From: Nanobdellota archaeon
GTDB lineage: Bacteria > Patescibacteriota > Minisyncoccia > UBA6257 > GWB1-50-10
Direction of reading: 5' to 3'
NCBI GenBank assembly: GCA_030695805.1
Contig: JAUYPG010000003.1
Span: 1-25,962, forward strand
DNA: 25,962 nucleotides
Position numbers and translations under genes: made by a program
Part shown: piece by piece, positions 15,390 through 20,267 of the stretch
Position numbering within the stretch: the first letter of the stretch is position 1
Layout of the letters: every line of letters starts with the position of its first letter
Notes under the pieces: model-generated
What the model was told of the DNA's origin: nothing
The model's input: the letters and a program-made list of their open reading frames with translations, nothing else
The model's database searches: none

Positions 15390-15713
15390 TTATAATTGTT
15401 TTATTTTTTCTTGAATATAAGCCGCTTCGTCTCGCACCACCTCGCCGTCATAGTCCCCGCTGTGCGCGGTTTCATTTCCGTACGTGGGACGCTTTTGATC
15501 AAGGTGGATGTTGAACACGAACTCATCCCCCTCTTCCTTTATATAGGCGTGGAAGCGAGGATAATCCCCTCCCAGGAGGCGAACGCAGTTCAATTCCCCC
15601 TTATCCGTAAACCCCAGAGGTTTATATCCTAGATGACGCACGATGGTCTGTAAATTCGCGTGCTTTGATTTTTTTATTCTTATTGTCATCTGCCGTTCTT
15701 GGTATTGTATCAT
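15390..15713 (-). CDS. Conserved hypothetical protein (start at 15713 or 15689)
   Basis: LGY...VRLLGGDYPRFHAYI...FNIHLDQKRPTY...HSGDYDGEVV. The track start at 15773 overlaps the divergent gene. Confidence 0.8.
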   Translation of the reverse strand: MIQYQERQMTIRIKKSKHANLQTIVRHLGYKPLGFTDKGELNCVRLLGGDYPRFHAYIKEEGDEFVFNIHLDQKRPTYGNETAHSGDYDGEVVRDEAAYIQEKIKQL

Positions 15714-15719
15714 ATTTTC

Positions 15720-15747
15720 TTGCCTTCTTTTGTCATCGGCGTATAAT
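15720..15747 (+). promoter_or_regulatory. Promoter TTGCCT-16-TATAAT for the carbonic anhydrase
   Basis: TATAAT at 15742-15747, 12 nt before ATG 15760. Confidence 0.5.
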
Positions 15748-15759
15748 ACGCTCCAAATT

Positions 15760-16827
15760 ATGAATGAAAGCAAGAATGGAAACGGAATAGATTACCTTAT
15801 CCGGCTAAACGAGGCCCACTCGAGCGAATTTGTAAGCCCGGAAATGACCCTCGCGCGGAGGCAGTATCGCGCCAAACACCCGACAGAAATCGGAGTTTTG
15901 AAATGCATGGATGGACGCCTGCACCTTCCCGTTATGACGAACACCGCGCTCGGCATCATCCAGCCGTGGAGGAATCTCGGCGGGCGTTTTGACCTCGGAT
16001 GGTATGGATTCGCCCTCTCCATCAAGGGGTGGGTGGACTACGCAATCGGCAGAGGTCGGGATGTCCTTATTATCGTTACCTACCATTTTGCCAAAGGAAA
16101 TTCTCATCGCGGATGCCGCGGTTTTAATTATGATGTGGAGGCCGCGAAGGCATTCACCTCTCGCCTGAAAAAACAATTCGACAGGGTTTTCGGCAAAGGC
16201 ACGGTCTACGCGATTCAGTGCGGGATAGAAACGGATTCGGACGCGCTCATCCTGCACGGCGAGCATGGAGAAATTGCGGATCTTTCACTCCTCGAGGATT
16301 TTTCGGAACCGCGCCTTGAACAATTGATCCGTGAACTCTACCCGGATATGCCGGAGGCGATAGCAAAAGATCTTCTCCCGCTTGCTTGCGGAAATGTGAA
16401 CCATGTTGCGGAGGTAAAAGATTCAAACCGCCCGATAGCCGATGTCGAACACAAGGAATGGGTTCTCGCGCTCGGGCGCGGATTCGACTGGCTGCACCTC
16501 ATAAACACCGGGCTTATCGTAGGTCCCTTTGATCCCGATTTCGCGGGCGCCATTGAAAAAGCAACCCTTATTCTCGAATCGAATCTTAAGGAAGGCAGGA
16601 TTGACGAGAAAAGTGGAGTCGTGCTTATGACCTCGGCGCCATACCGCGAGGCCTCTGGTCCGGAGCCCCGCCTTGCGGAAGAGAAGACCAGGTTTCTCAT
16701 GGACTTCGCTCTCGGGGTCATTGAAACCCGGGTTCCGAAGCTTATTTCCCACATCAGCCGCGTTTCCACAACCGTTGACATGAACACGCGCCGACTCCAA
16801 CTTATCGAACGGTTTGATAAGAAATAA
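15760..16827 (+). CDS. Beta-class carbonic anhydrase resembling carboxysomal CsoSCA
   Basis: KCMDGR (Cys-x-Asp-x-Arg), TYHF...HRGC (His and Cys Zn ligands), IETDSDALILH, EHKEWVLALGRGF. Start reassigned to MNESKN. Confidence 0.75.
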   Translation: MNESKNGNGIDYLIRLNEAHSSEFVSPEMTLARRQYRAKHPTEIGVLKCMDGRLHLPVMTNTALGIIQPWRNLGGRFDLGWYGFALSIKGWVDYAIGRGRDVLIIVTYHFAKGNSHRGCRGFNYDVEAAKAFTSRLKKQFDRVFGKGTVYAIQCGIETDSDALILHGEHGEIADLSLLEDFSEPRLEQLIRELYPDMPEAIAKDLLPLACGNVNHVAEVKDSNRPIADVEHKEWVLALGRGFDWLHLINTGLIVGPFDPDFAGAIEKATLILESNLKEGRIDEKSGVVLMTSAPYREASGPEPRLAEEKTRFLMDFALGVIETRVPKLISHISRVSTTVDMNTRRLQLIERFDKK

Positions 16828-17697
16828 TTATTCGATTTTTACATATCTTTTCGTGTACTCCGGATTTGTTCCGCAACACCCGCCGATTATCGTTGCGCCA
16901 AGTTTCTTCCATTTTGCGGCCTCTGCGACATAAAGCTCCGTATCGTCCTTATTTTTGAATTCCCACCCTTCTTTATCCGCGGGCCCTCCATCGCCGTTTC
17001 CGTAACCGCCAAATGGAATATTGGTGCATTCTTTTATTTTTTTTATGCTTTCCGTAATAATTTCCGGTCTGGCGCAATTTACGAGAAACGCAATCGGCCC
17101 GAGTGGCGCGAGCGCTTCAACCGCCTCTTTCCACGAACTTCCGTCGAATATATCTCCGCTTGTATCAGGCACAAAACTTATGGCAAATGGTTTTCCGGTT
17201 TTTCTGGCAGCGCACGCGGCAACCTCTGCCTCCGCAATCGTATTCATGGTTTCAATGAGGAAAAAATCAATCCCGAATCCCGCGAGCAGCTCCGCCTGTT
17301 CCCTATGTTCTTTTTCCAGTTCTTTTTCTGCGGGCACCAGGTTCGGGCGATAACAATCCTCAAGGGTTGTTGTGCAGGCCGCTATCCAAATTTTTCGGTC
17401 CGCGCCCGCCTCCTCAATGGCTTTTGTCGCGAGTTGTACGGCGAGCTTATTTATCCTTTCCGTTTCTTTTTCCAGTCCGACTTTCCGAAGCGTCCGCCTC
17501 TGCGTGCGGAAGGTGTTTGTGGTTATCACGTCTGCTCCGGCTTTTATGTAATCTTTGTGGATCTCTTTTACCAACTCCGGCTTCTCGAACAGCACTTTTG
17601 CCGACCAGAGCGGAAGGGTGGTGAGGCATCCGCGACGCTGTATTTCCGTGCCCATGGCACCGGACAAAAATGTGATTTTATTTTTGCTGAATATCAT
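16828..17697 (-). CDS. Homocysteine S-methyltransferase (HMT/MmuM family)
   Basis: GAMGTE, LWSAKVL...HKDYIKAGADVITTNTF, FLIETM, VNC and GGCCG Zn ligands. Start at MIFSKN. Confidence 0.92.
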   Translation of the reverse strand: MIFSKNKITFLSGAMGTEIQRRGCLTTLPLWSAKVLFEKPELVKEIHKDYIKAGADVITTNTFRTQRRTLRKVGLEKETERINKLAVQLATKAIEEAGADRKIWIAACTTTLEDCYRPNLVPAEKELEKEHREQAELLAGFGIDFFLIETMNTIAEAEVAACAARKTGKPFAISFVPDTSGDIFDGSSWKEAVEALAPLGPIAFLVNCARPEIITESIKKIKECTNIPFGGYGNGDGGPADKEGWEFKNKDDTELYVAEAAKWKKLGATIIGGCCGTNPEYTKRYVKIE

Positions 17698-17737
17698 ATT
17701 TTTTAGTTTAATGTTATTGGTTGAAAATTGAAGGTGG

Positions 17738-17761
17738 GGCGGCGGAAGCAAGTCCGCCGCC
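17738..17761. other. GC-rich hairpin between the Met methyltransferase and HMT genes
   Basis: Perfect 9-bp stem ggcggcgga/tccgccgcc. No immediate U-tract, so more likely an mRNA-stabilising hairpin or weak terminator. Confidence 0.55.
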
Positions 17762-17774
17762 TCGATGCTCTATG

Positions 17775-18614
17775 TCATGCGAGACGACCCTCGATGACGT
17801 AGATGTAATGATACACACTCTCCCTTAGGGAAAGGCGATGCGCGGCTTCCATGGCGCCAATGCACCCCTTCCCCTCGGGAGAAAGAAAGAACTCGAACCG
17901 ATGCTCCCCAGACATCTCCATTTCAGCGAGGGGCCGGAGGTCCGTCTGTGCGTGCTGACGGACTATCTCCTTGTGGATGACGCGCGGCTCGTACCCGCAC
18001 ACCACGAAGAGATTCGTGAGGCGCTTGATTCCGGGTCGTCCACCGAGGTTCAGGATGACACGGCCGTTTTTCGGAAGCGCCACTCCCTGGGCCTGTCGGA
18101 GGAGATCCTCGACAAGACCCAGGCCCAAAGAGTGGTTATGCCCAGGATGCTCCTCGGCATTGTAGTAGTGGGCAAGGGTGTCCCCCTCGCCCAATACCAC
18201 ATTCTTGGGGCACGGAACCTGAGGGATGCAACCGATGACGATGTCGGCCTTCGGGGGTGTATTACGTCCGCTTTTTACCAGATTCCACCTTCCAAACAAG
18301 GGGAAATCCCTTCCCTTAAGAAAATCCTCGAGTGGCGCGCTCGTGGTGAGGTTTTTCATCGCGAGTTTTGTACAACGCGCATCGTAGTCCGAGAAGATGC
18401 GTGTCGCACCCGGAAACCAGCGACGAAGGAGGATCTGTACGATCCCCGTTCCAACGCCGATTTCCCAAACGGTTTCGGTGGTGAGTTGTGCTTGTTTCAA
18501 CCCTCGGGCGAAAGTCCATGTCCATGCGTCTGGCATGAATGCCCACTCCGGAATTTCGATTTCTCCCTCGATCCCCTCGCGGAGATCTTCGGGAAGAAGC
18601 TCTTCGATCCTCAT
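17775..18614 (-). CDS. mmtN: Methionine S-methyltransferase (MmtN / plant MMT N-terminal domain homologue)
   Basis: FMPDAWTWTFARGL, EIGVGTG, VIGCIPQV, LGLGL, ILNLGGRPG, TDLRPLAEME...HRFEFF match my recalled plant MMT motifs (FMPEDWSFTFYEGL, VGCIPQI, FGLGL, IFNMGGRPG, TDISALVEIE...HRFEFF). AAGGAG RBS lies 8 nt before ATG 18614. Confidence 0.85.
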   Translation of the reverse strand: MRIEELLPEDLREGIEGEIEIPEWAFMPDAWTWTFARGLKQAQLTTETVWEIGVGTGIVQILLRRWFPGATRIFSDYDARCTKLAMKNLTTSAPLEDFLKGRDFPLFGRWNLVKSGRNTPPKADIVIGCIPQVPCPKNVVLGEGDTLAHYYNAEEHPGHNHSLGLGLVEDLLRQAQGVALPKNGRVILNLGGRPGIKRLTNLFVVCGYEPRVIHKEIVRQHAQTDLRPLAEMEMSGEHRFEFFLSPEGKGCIGAMEAAHRLSLRESVYHYIYVIEGRLA

Positions 18615-18716
18615 TCCCTTCACTCCTTATTGATAAGGTGCGGTTGCGGCGCCTGCTTCCCCATGGATTCTCCATGAAGTAGGCACCGTGCCACACCCCA
18701 TCTTTTTTCAAAGAAC

Positions 18717-18766
18717 CAAAAACAAAAAACAGCCCCGACAAGAGTCGGGGCTGTTTTTTGTTTTTG
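18717..18766 (-). terminator. Attenuator terminator (23-bp perfect inverted repeat, 4-nt loop)
   Basis: caaaaacaaaaaacagccccgac-tctt-gtcggggctgttttttgtttttg on the minus strand. Confidence 0.92.
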
Positions 18767-18770
18767 TACT

Positions 18771-18860
18771 TCAAAACCCCCGATTCTTGTCGGAATGTTG
18801 CATCATCATATCCATCATTATGCTCGTCGTTATTTTTTTGTGCGTTATGACGTTTTTCAT
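18771..18860 (-). CDS. Met-rich leader peptide (29 aa) of a putative attenuator
   Basis: MKNVITHKKITTSIMMDMMMQHSDKNRGF*; five ATG codons within codons 15-20, directly before the antiterminator strand. Too short for the ORF track. Confidence 0.8.
   Translation of the reverse strand: MKNVITHKKITTSIMMDMMMQHSDKNRGF
18778..18793 (-). promoter_or_regulatory. Antiterminator strand
   Basis: ccgacaagaatcgggg pairs 15/16 with ccccgactcttgtcgg inside the terminator hairpin. Confidence 0.8.
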
Positions 18861-18925
18861 TTTCAATATTCAGGATATCGGATATCTCTTCGAGCCTGAG
18901 GCTCTCAGAGCCGAATGGCCTGATT

Positions 18926-19969
18926 TTACATTTCCTCCCACGGGAGGCCGGGCTTGCCAAAGTGGCCGTAGACCGCGGTTTGCTTGTAGATGGGACGCCG
19001 CAGATTTAGGCGTTCAATAATCGCGCGCGGGCGGAAGTCGAAACGCTTTTTTATTTCTTCGGTCATGCTCTCTCCTTCTTCGTTTATTGCCTCCACCATA
19101 AGAGGATCCACGTGTCCTATGGCGTAGGCCACGGAAACCAGACATTTTTTCGCAAGCCCCTCTCTCACCATCTGCTTTGCGGCGTATCGGCACATATAAG
19201 CCGCGGAGCGGTCCACCTTTGTGGGGTCCTTCCCTGAAAACGCTCCGCCTCCATGCGGGATAAGGCCTCCGTAAGAATCCACCATAATCTTCCTTCCGGT
19301 TAGCCCTGCGTCGGCCTCAAATCCGCCCTGTACGAACTTGCCTGTGGGATTCACGAAAATCTCCACTCCTTCAATGTCGCCTATCACGGGCTTTATTAGT
19401 TTTTCTATGAGTTCTTTTCTGATTTCTTCCTGTGTAATGCTTTCTTTGTGCTGACAGCTTACGAGCACGATACGCGCCTTATCATTTTCAATTGTAATCT
19501 GTGCTTTGCCGTCCGGCAGGAGCCACGGAAGAACTCCGCTTTTTCGGAGATTCTCCAGGCCCTTTGTAAGATTATGAACGAGGACGATGCCTTTCGGCAG
19601 ACACTCCTCGGTCTCGTCCGTGGCATAGCCGTACATAATCCCCTGATCTCCGGCGCCGCCGGTGTCCACACCCATCGCAATGTCCGGCGACTGCGTTACG
19701 ATCTGAGTTATGATTTTTATATCGTCTTCGTACCCGATCTCCTTGTAGAGTTCGCGGGCTATGTTTTCATAATCGAGCTTCGCTTCCGTGGTAATTTCTC
19801 CTCCCAATACGAGAAGTCCGTGGGAGCCCATAGTTTCCGCGGCAACGCGACTTTTTGGATCTACGGCGAGGGCCGCGTCCAAAATCGCGTCCGATATCTG
19901 GTCGCAGACCTTATCCGGGTGGCCGGAGGTAACTGATTCGACTGTGTATATTTTTGGGACGTGTACCAT
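18926..19969 (-). CDS. metK: S-adenosylmethionine synthetase
   Basis: ESVTSGHPDKVCDQISD, GAGDQGIMYGYA, NPTGKFVQGG..ADAGLTGRKIMVDSYGG, GGGAFSGKDPTKVDRSAAY. Start at MVHVPK, after AAGGA. Confidence 0.97.
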   Translation of the reverse strand: MVHVPKIYTVESVTSGHPDKVCDQISDAILDAALAVDPKSRVAAETMGSHGLLVLGGEITTEAKLDYENIARELYKEIGYEDDIKIITQIVTQSPDIAMGVDTGGAGDQGIMYGYATDETEECLPKGIVLVHNLTKGLENLRKSGVLPWLLPDGKAQITIENDKARIVLVSCQHKESITQEEIRKELIEKLIKPVIGDIEGVEIFVNPTGKFVQGGFEADAGLTGRKIMVDSYGGLIPHGGGAFSGKDPTKVDRSAAYMCRYAAKQMVREGLAKKCLVSVAYAIGHVDPLMVEAINEEGESMTEEIKKRFDFRPRAIIERLNLRRPIYKQTAVYGHFGKPGLPWEEM

Positions 19970-19981
19970 TATGCTTCCTTT

Positions 19982-20072
19982 CCAACACGAATGACGCGAA
20001 TAGAACGCGAACAACACGAAAACGCAATAACGTTCGCGTTGTTCGTGATGGAGTTCGTGTTATTCGTATTGG
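19982..20072. repeat. Long imperfect inverted repeat built from cgaa-containing short units, in the metK leader
   Basis: Outer arms pair 18/19 (with G-U); inner arms aacgcgaac/gttcgcgtt. Confidence 0.6.
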
Positions 20073-20077
20073 TCTTT

Positions 20078-20105
20078 AAAATAAATATACTTCCCGCAAA
20101 GGAAG
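20078..20105 (-). terminator. Riboswitch expression-platform terminator
   Basis: cttcct-ttgc-gggaag followed by tatatttatttt. Its 5' arm (atcttcc) can alternatively pair with ggaaagat of the aptamer. Confidence 0.65.
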
Positions 20106-20115
20106 ATTCGACTGA

Positions 20116-20221
20116 TTATCTTTCCCTTGTGGGGTCCGAAGGAGCACCTTTCCCCTCGAGTCACCTCGGGGCGGTTGCTGTGCGGATCGTTGGGTCGGTT
20201 CCCTCCCCGCGCTCTTGATAA
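20116..20221 (-). ncRNA. SAM-I (S-box) riboswitch aptamer
   Basis: TTATCAAGAG...GGAGGGA..ACCC..CAGCAACC...GGTGC...GAAAGATAA; P1 ttatc/gataa, P3 gcaacc/ggtgc, P4 ccc/ggg; upstream of metK. Confidence 0.92.
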
Positions 20222-20239
20222 CTATGAAATTGTAGCGTA

Positions 20240-20267
20240 ATTATATACGACTTTTATTTCGTGTCAA
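20240..20267 (-). promoter_or_regulatory. Consensus sigma70 promoter TTGACA-16-TATAAT
   Basis: Perfect hexamers, 18 nt upstream of the riboswitch P1. Confidence 0.85.

Follow-up and report, generated by a model that had tools for sequence, protein, structure and literature searches.

Two predicted cis-acting sensors in series in a probable methionine/SAM homeostasis operon of a CPR bacterium

We analysed a 25,962-nucleotide stretch of DNA (the window) from the 695-kb, 83% complete genome of a groundwater CPR (Patescibacteria) bacterium. It carries on its minus strand (20267..16828), in this order, a promoter, a SAM-I riboswitch, metK, a Met-codon leader with an attenuator, mmtN and a homocysteine S-methyltransferase gene (HMT). 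The original prediction named this gene order and four regulatory elements, and all of them are present. The arrangement is probably a methionine (Met) and SAM homeostasis operon of an auxotrophic host, with two cis-acting sensors in series. The elements are there and the design of the leader is conserved; as for the operon's likely physiological role, the regulation points to induction of the S-methylmethionine (SMM) cycle by shortage of Met or SAM, not to buffering of excess SAM.

Results

The sigma-70-type promoter (TTGACA-16-TATAAT; 20240..20267, minus strand) matches the consensus at 12/12 positions. Sixteen nucleotides downstream of it begins a SAM-I riboswitch aptamer (RF00162; 20113..20224, minus strand), which is matched over the full model (1-108) with 54.7 bits and an E value of 3e-10, the gathering score being 44.4. 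It is the only copy of this aptamer in the genome and is predicted to bind SAM. The expression platform (20078..20112, minus strand) contains the element CUUCCUUU at 20105..20098, which has three alternative partners: the 3' half of the aptamer; GGAAG, with which it forms a hairpin at 20105..20090 followed by a U-rich tail; and the metK Shine-Dalgarno (SD) sequence AAAGGAAG (19974..19981, minus strand, read from the sequence), which is the perfect complement of 20105..20098. The anti-sequestor duplex of the expression platform has an energy of -19.0 kcal/mol. The anti-SD:SD duplex in the metK 5' UTR spans 8 nt and has -11.9 kcal/mol, and the terminator-like stem at 20105..20090, of 5-6 bp, has about -5 to -6 kcal/mol (-5.3 to -6.0). 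A long stable hairpin in the same UTR (19982..20072, minus strand; -42.7 kcal/mol), part of a fold with a z-score of -4.68, sets the anti-SD and the SD near each other.

The SAM-bound aptamer would free CUUCCUUU, which would then turn metK off, either through the short terminator hairpin or by pairing with the metK ribosome-binding site. SD sequestration is as plausible an output of the riboswitch as the weak terminator, and because that terminator is weak, the SAM gate may not extend to mmtN-HMT.

The first gene of the operon, metK (18926..19969, minus strand), encodes a methionine adenosyltransferase of 347 aa that scores 432.5 bits against TIGR01034 (cut-off 309.4 bits) and matches 3/3 of the Pfam S-AdoMet_synt domains. 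The product of mmtN (17775..18614, minus strand; 279 aa) is a Group II methionine S-methyltransferase by similarity, its best solved relative being MmtN of PDB entry 7VVV (E 1e-31). Over its full length it shares 45% identity with TSC76298.1, a Parcubacteria CPR MmtN that Peng et al. 2022 (PMC9135737) assayed, and it shares about 33% with OGG13690.1; the original prediction was right that functional CPR homologues had been reported. In the alignment the SAM-binding residues are conserved, while the residues with which Group I MmtN binds Met (E127, R132 and E250) are unmatched, the window having C135, V140 and S235 at the aligned positions. HMT (16828..17697, minus strand; 289 aa; PF02574, 4e-63) is the only PF02574 match in the genome; among solved structures its best relative is E. 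coli MmuM (5DML, 2e-27). By sequence comparison the three proteins belong to the MetK, MmtN and HMT families and would presumably have the corresponding activities in this organism.

The transcript of metK would run on into a leader ORF of 29 codons (18771..18860, minus strand), in which codons 15, 16, 18, 19 and 20 are Met codons. The 18-nt pattern of this run (MMxMMM; 18801..18818, minus strand) is found nowhere else in the 695-kb genome. The 3' end of the ORF holds an antiterminator segment (18778..18793, minus strand; read from the sequence and from fold simulation), and beyond the ORF lies an intrinsic terminator (18718..18765, minus strand) that was detected by a terminator scan and has a GC core, a U tract and an upstream A tract. 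Its stem has 20 pairs, 9 of them GC, the core hairpin has an energy of -21 kcal/mol and the fold z-score is -7.45. The antiterminator pairs with the terminator core at 15/16 positions, the two structures are mutually exclusive, and the antiterminator effect is reproduced by 0/200 shuffles. Fold simulation of the ribosome-free RNA already favours the antiterminator. Equilibrium folding with the U tract included always prefers the terminator, so the switch must be kinetic.

With ample charged Met-tRNA, a ribosome would reach the stop codon and cover the antiterminator, the terminator would form and the RNA would end after metK. When Met-tRNA is short, the ribosome would probably stall at the Met run, 18793..18778 would base-pair with the terminator's 5' arm, and RNA polymerase would read through into mmtN and HMT. 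The leader ATG has neither an SD nor a promoter of the leaderless type seen in relatives, and the best promoter match ahead of it (7/12) fits feeding from metK. From the stop codon of metK to the start codon of the leader, the scan detected neither a terminator-like site nor, at its threshold, a promoter-like one, and it detected no promoter-like site in the stretch from the attenuator terminator to mmtN. A GC-rich hairpin between mmtN and HMT (17736..17763, minus strand; read from the sequence) lacks a U tract and was not called as a terminator by the scan. Co-transcription of metK with mmtN-HMT is probable.

Comparison confirms the Met-codon leader: MMxMMM, a stop codon, a terminator and a competing pairing stand in the same arrangement ahead of mmtN-HMT in 12/23 distinct CPR loci (the window and 11 others), although MmtN identity among these distinct loci is just 37-47%. 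All of the leaders tested (12/12) have a terminator probability of at least 0.95 with a ribosome at the stop codon and of at most 0.07 in at least one Met-stalled state. Shuffled spacers mimic this switching in only 0-12 of 200 trials per leader, so that the antiterminators are non-random in every one of the twelve. This comparative evidence strongly backs the Met-codon attenuator of the original prediction, and no published attenuator that senses methionine was found in the literature searched. Among the loci examined, adjacency to metK is confined to the present window. In 10/11 of the other mmtN loci the leader ATG follows the end of a promoter (8-11/12 positions) by 6-9 nt, which makes their leaders leaderless transcripts, and about half of the leaders lack segment 1, so their untranslated state reads through too. 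Within the leader peptides the Met codon run alone is conserved, and the flanking residues vary freely.

Elsewhere in Patescibacteria the same Met leaders precede metA (PF04204, 1e-60) and five SAM-hydrolase-like genes. For one of the latter proteins an AF2 model (pLDDT 93) has as its top 19 PDB matches SAM hydroxide adenosyltransferases, chlorinases or fluorinases without exception. These Met-leader genes all raise free Met. MmtN itself is rare in the phylum (4/400 other genomes). Three further mmtN-HMT loci (L008, L043 and L046) have a SAM-I-like aptamer and a clear terminator in place of the Met leader. SAM repression of mmtN-HMT in these three loci fits badly with a pure SAM-to-Met draining role.

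In the 83%-complete host genome we found no metE, metH, metA, Cys/Met PLP enzymes or MetQ; ahcY is present outside the operon. We regard the host as a probable methionine auxotroph, in which apart from HMT no methionine synthase was detected, although an assembly of this completeness may lack genes that the organism has. MmtN would convert Met and SAM to SMM, HMT would convert SMM and homocysteine to two Met, and AhcY would regenerate homocysteine for HMT. The net reaction originally proposed, SAM + Hcy -> SAH + Met, is correct in its stoichiometry, but it would not amount to net remethylation: MetK takes the methyl group from Met in the first place, and the loop is therefore closed. MetK, MmtN, HMT and AhcY together would form an ATP-burning loop with a net yield of only SAM -> Met + adenosine, which would favour free Met in the Met:SAM partition without making new Met. 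The operon's neighbours in the window are PGI, a LOG-like gene, transketolase, DUF4015 and GDH; no DMSP-pathway genes adjoin it, as the original prediction stated.

Discussion

The nested logic first proposed, in which low SAM opens the operon and low Met additionally opens mmtN-HMT, holds in part: the Met-leader design is conserved, but with a riboswitch stem of 5-6 bp set against an SD pairing of -11.9 kcal/mol, the AND gate is unproven. It is quite possible, though in our judgement not probable, that one constitutively made mRNA carries two independent single-input controls, the riboswitch governing metK translation only, by SD sequestration, and Met-tRNA charging alone governing mmtN-HMT. 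The perfect complementarity of the anti-SD CUUCCUUU to the SD, the -42.7 kcal/mol hairpin that draws them together, the low energy of the terminator-like stem and the Met input acting alone on mmtN-HMT in relatives would all agree with this. However, a hairpin with a U-rich tail is present at 20105..20090, an untranslated metK could exert polarity on the distal genes, and the related riboswitches of L008, L043 and L046 have clear terminators. Peng et al. 2022 (PMC9135737) propose that the pair buffers SAM overshoot, and a plant-like role of this kind, in which MmtN drains excess SAM and regulation only sets the enzyme level, would suit both the low affinity for SAM that they report for MmtN, as in an overflow valve, and the presence of genes for MMT, HMT, MetK and SAHH. 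We consider it unlikely, since all regulators found, both the Met leaders and the SAM-I OFF switches of L008, L043 and L046, mean ON at low Met or SAM and OFF at high SAM, opposite to what an overflow device needs, and the genes co-regulated elsewhere (metA, SAM-hydrolase-like) supply Met.

Small-molecule-sensing arrest peptides are known, and a Met-run peptide of the TnaC/SpeFL type that stalls at high free Met or SAM would let excess induce mmtN-HMT. The antiterminator favoured in the naked RNA of the window's leader would agree with such a peptide, yet conservation is limited to the Met codons, and the same leader type stands before the biosynthetic metA, which is expected to be induced by starvation rather than by excess; this reading is very improbable. 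We give still less credence to a chance ORF followed by a plain metK terminator, with mmtN-HMT served by an unrecognised promoter of its own. The leader does lack an SD, and the terminator, with its A and U tracts, is typical of a gene end, but the Met pattern is single in the genome, the design is seen again in 11 further distinct loci, none of them preceded by metK, the antiterminators are non-random and the scan returned no promoter-like site past the terminator. A Met- and SAM-responsive operon with two sensors in series is the reading we retain.

Several known systems resemble parts of this arrangement. Grundy and Henkin are said to have shown in 1998 that the Firmicutes S-box (SAM-I) regulon includes metK and the HMT-domain gene yitJ; the window shares with it a SAM-I aptamer, predicted to act as an OFF switch, before metK and HMT-family genes within a SAM-repressed methionine regulon, and differs in its phylum (CPR), in its very weak terminator with a long-range SD-sequestering option and in the second, ribosome-based sensor within the operon. 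More than one cis-acting RNA sensor per transcript is also found in the tandem SAM-I and AdoCbl riboswitches that Sudarsan et al. reportedly described in 2006 on Bacillus clausii metE, and in the B. subtilis pyr operon, which has serial intercistronic attenuators and, like other internal attenuators, allows proximal and distal genes to be controlled differently. Here, in contrast, the sensors differ in kind (a metabolite-binding RNA and ribosome-read codons) and have a gene between them. The leader itself resembles trpL, hisL, leuL, thrL, pheL and the ilv leaders of E. coli and Salmonella: a short ORF with a run of codons for the sensed amino acid, a stop codon just before an intrinsic terminator, and an exclusive antiterminator covered by a ribosome at the stop. 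Unlike these, it would sense methionine and is intercistronic rather than at the 5' end, and the leaders of its relatives are mostly on leaderless mRNAs, about half of them without segment 1.

The plant SMM cycle of MMT and HMT, as Ranocha et al. reportedly set out in 2001, has the same chemistry and, with SAM synthetase and SAH hydrolase, the same futile-cycle stoichiometry. Plant MMT has a C-terminal aminotransferase-like domain that is missing from MmtN, and in the window the genes are operonic, under starvation-type control, in a methionine-auxotroph host with no other methionine synthase detected. The plant-like cycle of the original prediction, with its adjacent HMT, is not new to CPR bacteria: Peng et al. 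2022 (Nat Commun 13:2947; PMC9135737) reported the pair and a predicted SMM cycle there, and the Group II MmtN and HMT of CPR/Woesearchaeota have the same enzymes, gene order and absence of DMSP genes. That work does not mention a riboswitch, a leader peptide or metK; in the window metK stands upstream of the pair, with a Met-codon attenuator between them, and the control of the pair points to Met/SAM shortage rather than to buffering of excess SAM. The metK linkage of mmtN-HMT is new, and it is this linkage and the regulation, rather than the enzyme pair or the cycle, that the window adds: metK would respond to one input and mmtN-HMT perhaps to both.

A predicted operon with two RNA-level sensors

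The predicted operon lies on the minus strand and begins with a sigma-70 promoter that matches the consensus at 12 of 12 positions (20267..20240). Downstream are a SAM-I aptamer (RF00162, 20224..20113; 54.7 bits against a gathering threshold of 44.4, E 3e-10), metK (19969..18926), a leader ORF of 29 codons which starts 65 nt past the metK stop (18860..18771), the intrinsic terminator of an attenuator, located by terminator scan (18765..18718), mmtN, whose 279-residue product matches 7VVV (18614..17775), and a homocysteine S-methyltransferase gene (HMT; 17697..16828). This gene order and these regulatory elements had been proposed for positions 16828-20267 from the sequence, and scans together with covariance and profile models bear them out. 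The stretch from metK to the leader showed no terminator-like site and, at the scan threshold, no promoter-like one; nor did the scan reveal a promoter-like site from the attenuator terminator to mmtN. The sequencing runs that contain the locus are groundwater DNA metagenomes only, with no RNA run among them.

The genes adjoining the operon encode PGI, a LOG-like protein, transketolase, a DUF4015 protein and GDH. As had been claimed, no DMSP pathway genes are adjacent, and on this neighborhood a role in DMSP synthesis was rejected. Two further features of the region are a stem-loop rich in GC but lacking a U tract (17736-17763, minus strand), which is found in the 77 nt that separate mmtN from HMT and may serve in RNA processing or stability or as a weak internal attenuator, and a 394-aa ORF (15643-16827, plus strand) which converges on the HMT stop, ends abutting it and has no Pfam match; it was originally described as CsoSCA-like.

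Assignment of MetK, MmtN and HMT

The metK product is assigned as a methionine adenosyltransferase at equivalog level (TIGR01034, 432.5 bits against a cut-off of 309.4). The 279-aa methyltransferase matches no Pfam family above threshold, but aligns over residues 21-278 with the solved MmtN of Roseovarius indicus (PDB code 7VVV; E 1e-31) and is 45% identical to TSC76298.1, an assayed MmtN from Patescibacteria (CPR bacteria). It has a GxGxG motif (GVGTG, residues 53-57), and its D76, L112 and C129 align with the SAM-contacting Asp69, Leu102 and Cys121 of R. indicus MmtN; all of these are invariant across our MmtN alignment (A1). Ser101 of the R. indicus enzyme aligns with Asn111. The Met-binding residues of Group I MmtN, Glu127, Arg132 and Glu250, are unmatched in the window protein, where C135, V140 and S235 align with them. 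TSC76298.1 has Thr rather than Glu opposite C135, and Group I enzymes mutated at Met-contacting residues retain more than 50% activity, making these residues dispensable for catalysis, so the mismatch weakens a Group I identity and not membership in Group II. By sequence the protein is a Group II MmtN, predicted to form S-methylmethionine (SMM).

HMT matches PF02574 over its full length (214 bits, model positions 3-278 of 283), and its translation has a Cys in an NC motif and a GGCCG pair near the C-terminus, which we take to be the zinc-binding cysteines. Among solved structures E. coli MmuM is nearest to it (PDB code 5DML, 2e-27), and it scores 168.6 bits against the MmuM equivalog NF007020, short of the cut-off of 215. 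We assign it as a PF02574 homocysteine S-methyltransferase with SMM as its putative methyl donor.

Group II MmtN was established by Peng et al. for CPR bacteria and a Woesearchaeon; five CPR proteins that they expressed, TSC76298.1 among them, proved to be Met S-methyltransferases (PMC9135737), in keeping with the expectation that functional CPR homologs had already been reported. They also pointed out that HMT adjoins CPR mmtN, twice along with MetRS, and predicted that a plant-like SMM cycle controls Met and SAM; their text mentions neither a riboswitch nor metK (PMC9135737). The enzyme pair and the SMM cycle are therefore not new.

A methionine-codon attenuator ahead of mmtN

The leader ORF has ATG at codons 15, 16, 18, 19 and 20, giving five Met in six codons, and its 18-nt Met pattern occurs once in the 695-kb genome. 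The attenuator region folds with a z-score of -7.45 against shuffles, and a segment at 18793..18778 can pair with the terminator core at 15 of 16 positions. The fold model took in the RNA that is free as the polymerase arrives at the U tract and left out the U tract itself. In this model, a ribosome on the stop codon gives a terminator probability of 1.00, and one stalled on the first or middle Met codons gives 0.07-0.08; none of 200 shuffles did as well. When the U tract is included, the terminator is always favored at equilibrium and the states are not separated (window leader and two others, L002a and L009), which is why the RNA of the decision point was used, and which implies that the choice must be kinetic. 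Classical leader-peptide attenuators also make a kinetic choice.

The Met run, the mutually exclusive folds and the recurrence of the design in relatives sustain the proposal of a Met-codon attenuator ahead of mmtN: a ribosome-mediated attenuator with predicted read-through on Met starvation is well supported by sequence and fold model. The leader AUG is internal and has no Shine-Dalgarno (SD) sequence. The best promoter match upstream of it reaches only 7 of 12 positions with the wrong spacing, and metK lies there instead; this fits entry of transcripts from the metK promoter, and supports the originally proposed single transcript carrying metK and mmtN-HMT.

The same leader design at other mmtN-HMT loci

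Genome and metagenome collections yielded about 85 related loci. In 23 distinct CPR loci mmtN adjoins HMT and enough upstream sequence is available; 12 of these have a Met leader ahead of mmtN-HMT. These leaders contain four or five Met within six codons, mostly as MMxMMM, and a stop codon 5-16 codons past the run is followed by a hairpin and U tract. The Met run is the sole feature common to the leader peptides, and the MmtN proteins of leader-bearing loci are 37-47% identical to that of the window. In the fold model, a ribosome at the stop codon gives a terminator stem probability of at least 0.95 in all 12 leaders, and stalling in the Met run lowers it to 0.07 or less at one or more positions in every one; of 200 spacer shuffles for each leader, 0-12 reproduced the effect. 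In about half of the leaders the untranslated state is default-ON. At 10 of the 11 other leader-bearing mmtN loci, only 6-9 nt separate the end of a TTGACx-16/17-TAnnnT promoter (8-11 of 12 matches) from the leader ATG, so the mRNA that encodes the leader peptide would be leaderless or nearly so.

A survey of conservation separates the two halves of the predicted metK-mmtN-HMT operon: mmtN-HMT with its Met leader recurs, whereas linkage to metK is found in the window alone among the ~85 loci and was rejected as a conserved trait. One ENA locus has a gene for a 365-aa protein upstream of mmtN. Locus L002 (3275-3530; identical to L006, MAG WB02no5_39_7) has a tandem pair of full Met-leader attenuators upstream of mmtN-HMT, each with terminator and antiterminator. 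Loci L050 (~485-505) and L051 (~385-405) share a hairpin, CTCGGA...TCCGAG, just 5' of the mmtN start, and their leaders differ. A candidate leader at locus L111 was rejected, being the acidic C-terminus of a protein in another reading frame.

Other genes behind methionine leaders

A scan for the 18-nt Met pattern across 400 other Patescibacteria genomes found leader-plus-terminator units ahead of mmtN-HMT (genome G019), of metA (homoserine O-acyltransferase, PF04204, 1e-60) and of genes for two proteins without a Pfam family. At the metA locus (L092, G047:C70, minus strand, ~1471-1720) the attenuator is directly upstream of metA and is followed by a second Met-rich mini-ORF without a terminator of its own; the contig also carries a SAM-hydrolase-like gene of the kind described next.

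One of the two proteins without a Pfam family, L115:489-1394:- (G169:C83), has 208 relatives at E <=0.001, and 45 of 48 sampled relatives match PF20257, the C-terminal domain of SAM hydroxide adenosyltransferases. The full length of its AlphaFold model (pLDDT 93.4) aligned with no other proteins than SAM hydroxide adenosyltransferases, the SalL chlorinase, fluorinase and the MJ1651 SAM hydrolase, which made up the top 19 matches (E down to 2.6e-11, TM 0.6-0.7). The other, L104:407-1396:- (G353:C31), shares the QFRS...D.FGN region with this family. The possibility that either is a divergent MmtN was rejected (hhalign probability <=1%). Proteins of this SAM-hydrolase-like family are ~270-330 aa long, with the C-terminal Pfam domain alone detectable, and occur in 22 of the 400 genomes; three further members (L134, L137 and L140) are behind Met leaders with terminators, bringing to five the genes directly behind such leaders. 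Another SAM-hydrolase-like gene, G129:C31:16974-17796 (L139, L147), has 12-16 in-frame TGA codons, which suggests that this genome reads TGA as a sense codon, as in a code 25-type lineage.

All known enzymes of the superfamily that comprises SAM hydroxide adenosyltransferase, chlorinase and fluorinase attack SAM at C5', which sets L-methionine free. Every gene class behind a Met leader would thus raise free methionine.

Chemistry of the cycle

The genome is 83% complete, and within it we found no metE (two models), no second PF02574 domain and hence no metH, no metA, Cys/Met PLP enzymes or MetQ, and no SAM-hydrolase-like gene. AhcY (421 aa) is encoded on contig C55, with no RNA element found upstream of its gene. 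A genome check suggested with the original prediction thus returned ahcY but neither metE nor metH, and the full SMM cycle set is encoded: metK, mmtN and HMT in the window, and AhcY elsewhere. With no other genes for Met synthesis found, MetK, MmtN, HMT and AhcY form a closed loop.

The predicted net reaction, SAM + Hcy -> SAH + Met, has the correct stoichiometry, but as a remethylation route it yields no new Met, since the methyl group passed on by SAM was itself derived from Met. Taken together with the MetK and AhcY steps, the reaction only consumes ATP, as does the SMM cycle of plants. The single net conversion by MmtN, HMT and AhcY is SAM + H2O -> Met + adenosine, precisely the conversion expected of the SAM-hydrolase-like enzymes encoded behind Met leaders in other genomes.

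SAM-I and SAM-I-like aptamers in the window and at other loci

The window aptamer matches the covariance model of the four-helix RF00162 over positions 1-108 of 108 and is the one SAM-I element in the 695-kb genome. It is assigned to the SAM-I class and predicted to bind SAM; a SAM-I riboswitch ahead of metK is an ordinary arrangement. The expression platform could act in two ways. Without SAM, CUUCCUUU (20105..20098) would be held by the aptamer 3' half in an anti-sequestor pairing (-19.0 kcal/mol). With SAM, the freed CUUCCUUU might fold a short terminator-like hairpin with a U-rich tail, a poor terminator of 5-6 bp (-5.3 to -6.0 kcal/mol), or it might sequester the metK SD, with which it pairs at 8 of 8 positions (-11.9 kcal/mol) and beside which it is placed by a hairpin of -42.7 kcal/mol. 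This near-perfect hairpin of 91 nt, with ACGAAC/ACGAAT-like repeats, lies between riboswitch and metK start (19982-20072, minus strand) and is unusual for an S-box platform.

SAM also appears to control mmtN-HMT at three loci without a Met leader: L008 (2733-2869), which encodes the assayed TSC76298.1, L043 (418-539) and L046 (131-236). Each has a SAM-I-like aptamer (28, 40 and 38 bits, respectively, all under the Rfam gathering threshold) followed by a clear terminator, whose 3' arm echoes the aptamer CAAGAG in L008 and L043. A terminator 3' arm that repeats aptamer sequence is the usual OFF design. The L008 aptamer has a 48-nt insertion in P2. These aptamers may be a CPR variant missed by standard annotation. 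Scanned at the Rfam gathering threshold, the loci L001, L002 and L005 gave no match, and another thirteen related loci gave no riboswitch.

Direction and logic of the control

The presence of biosynthetic metA among the leader targets argues for a switch that opens on starvation. The leaders could instead encode ligand-induced arrest peptides, but metA and other Met-raising genes behind the same leaders speak against this. The regulators also speak against the published idea that the SMM cycle runs off surplus SAM, as Met leaders and SAM-I-like switches both point to induction by shortage. We tentatively favor, at a little under even probability, the reading that shortage of charged Met-tRNA makes these auxotrophs pull Met back from SAM. 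Its weak point is the predicted repression of mmtN-HMT by SAM at the three loci with SAM-I-like OFF switches: there seems little sense in using up SAM that is already scarce. For those three loci a generic methionine regulon, in which the cell treats HMT as its methionine synthase, fits better. The wider proposal, that Met-codon leaders, mostly leaderless, form a phylum-wide Patescibacteria regulon (mmtN-HMT, SAM-hydrolase-like genes and metA) with the window sensor nested in a SAM-riboswitch metK transcript, we hold with slightly less confidence still.

Whether the two window sensors act in series depends on the platform. If SAM causes termination, mmtN-HMT would need low SAM and low Met together, as in the original prediction; if it acts by SD pairing, metK would answer to SAM and mmtN-HMT to Met alone. 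Such independent control, with the riboswitch gating only metK, would make better physiological sense for a path that returns SAM to Met, and we rate its chance at not much over one third.

We found no methionine leader-peptide attenuator in the literature searched, comparative-genomics papers included; also absent from it are an association of this attenuator class with mmtN-HMT, SAM-I control of these genes as the alternative, and the serial arrangement with metK. The window offers a further well-supported case of a methionine-sensing, ribosome-mediated attenuator, and the class has unusual features in its leaderless leader mRNAs and, in about half, a default-ON untranslated state. Met-leader and SAM-I motifs mark methionine-related genes in poorly annotated CPR genomes, unannotated SAM-hydrolase-like ones too. 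The regulators give a direction to the published but untested idea of an SMM cycle in CPR bacteria, namely on at Met or SAM shortage, and two unlike sensors in one predicted transcript would make a compact control of the opposing fluxes from Met to SAM and from SAM to Met. If the regulon reading is true, these auxotrophs would meet a shortage of charged Met-tRNA by withdrawing Met from SAM, and the operon described here would set the Met:SAM partition by push and pull, with two sensors made of RNA and ribosome only. This makes a testable hypothesis of SAM as a methionine reserve in cells where Met is neither made nor remethylated.
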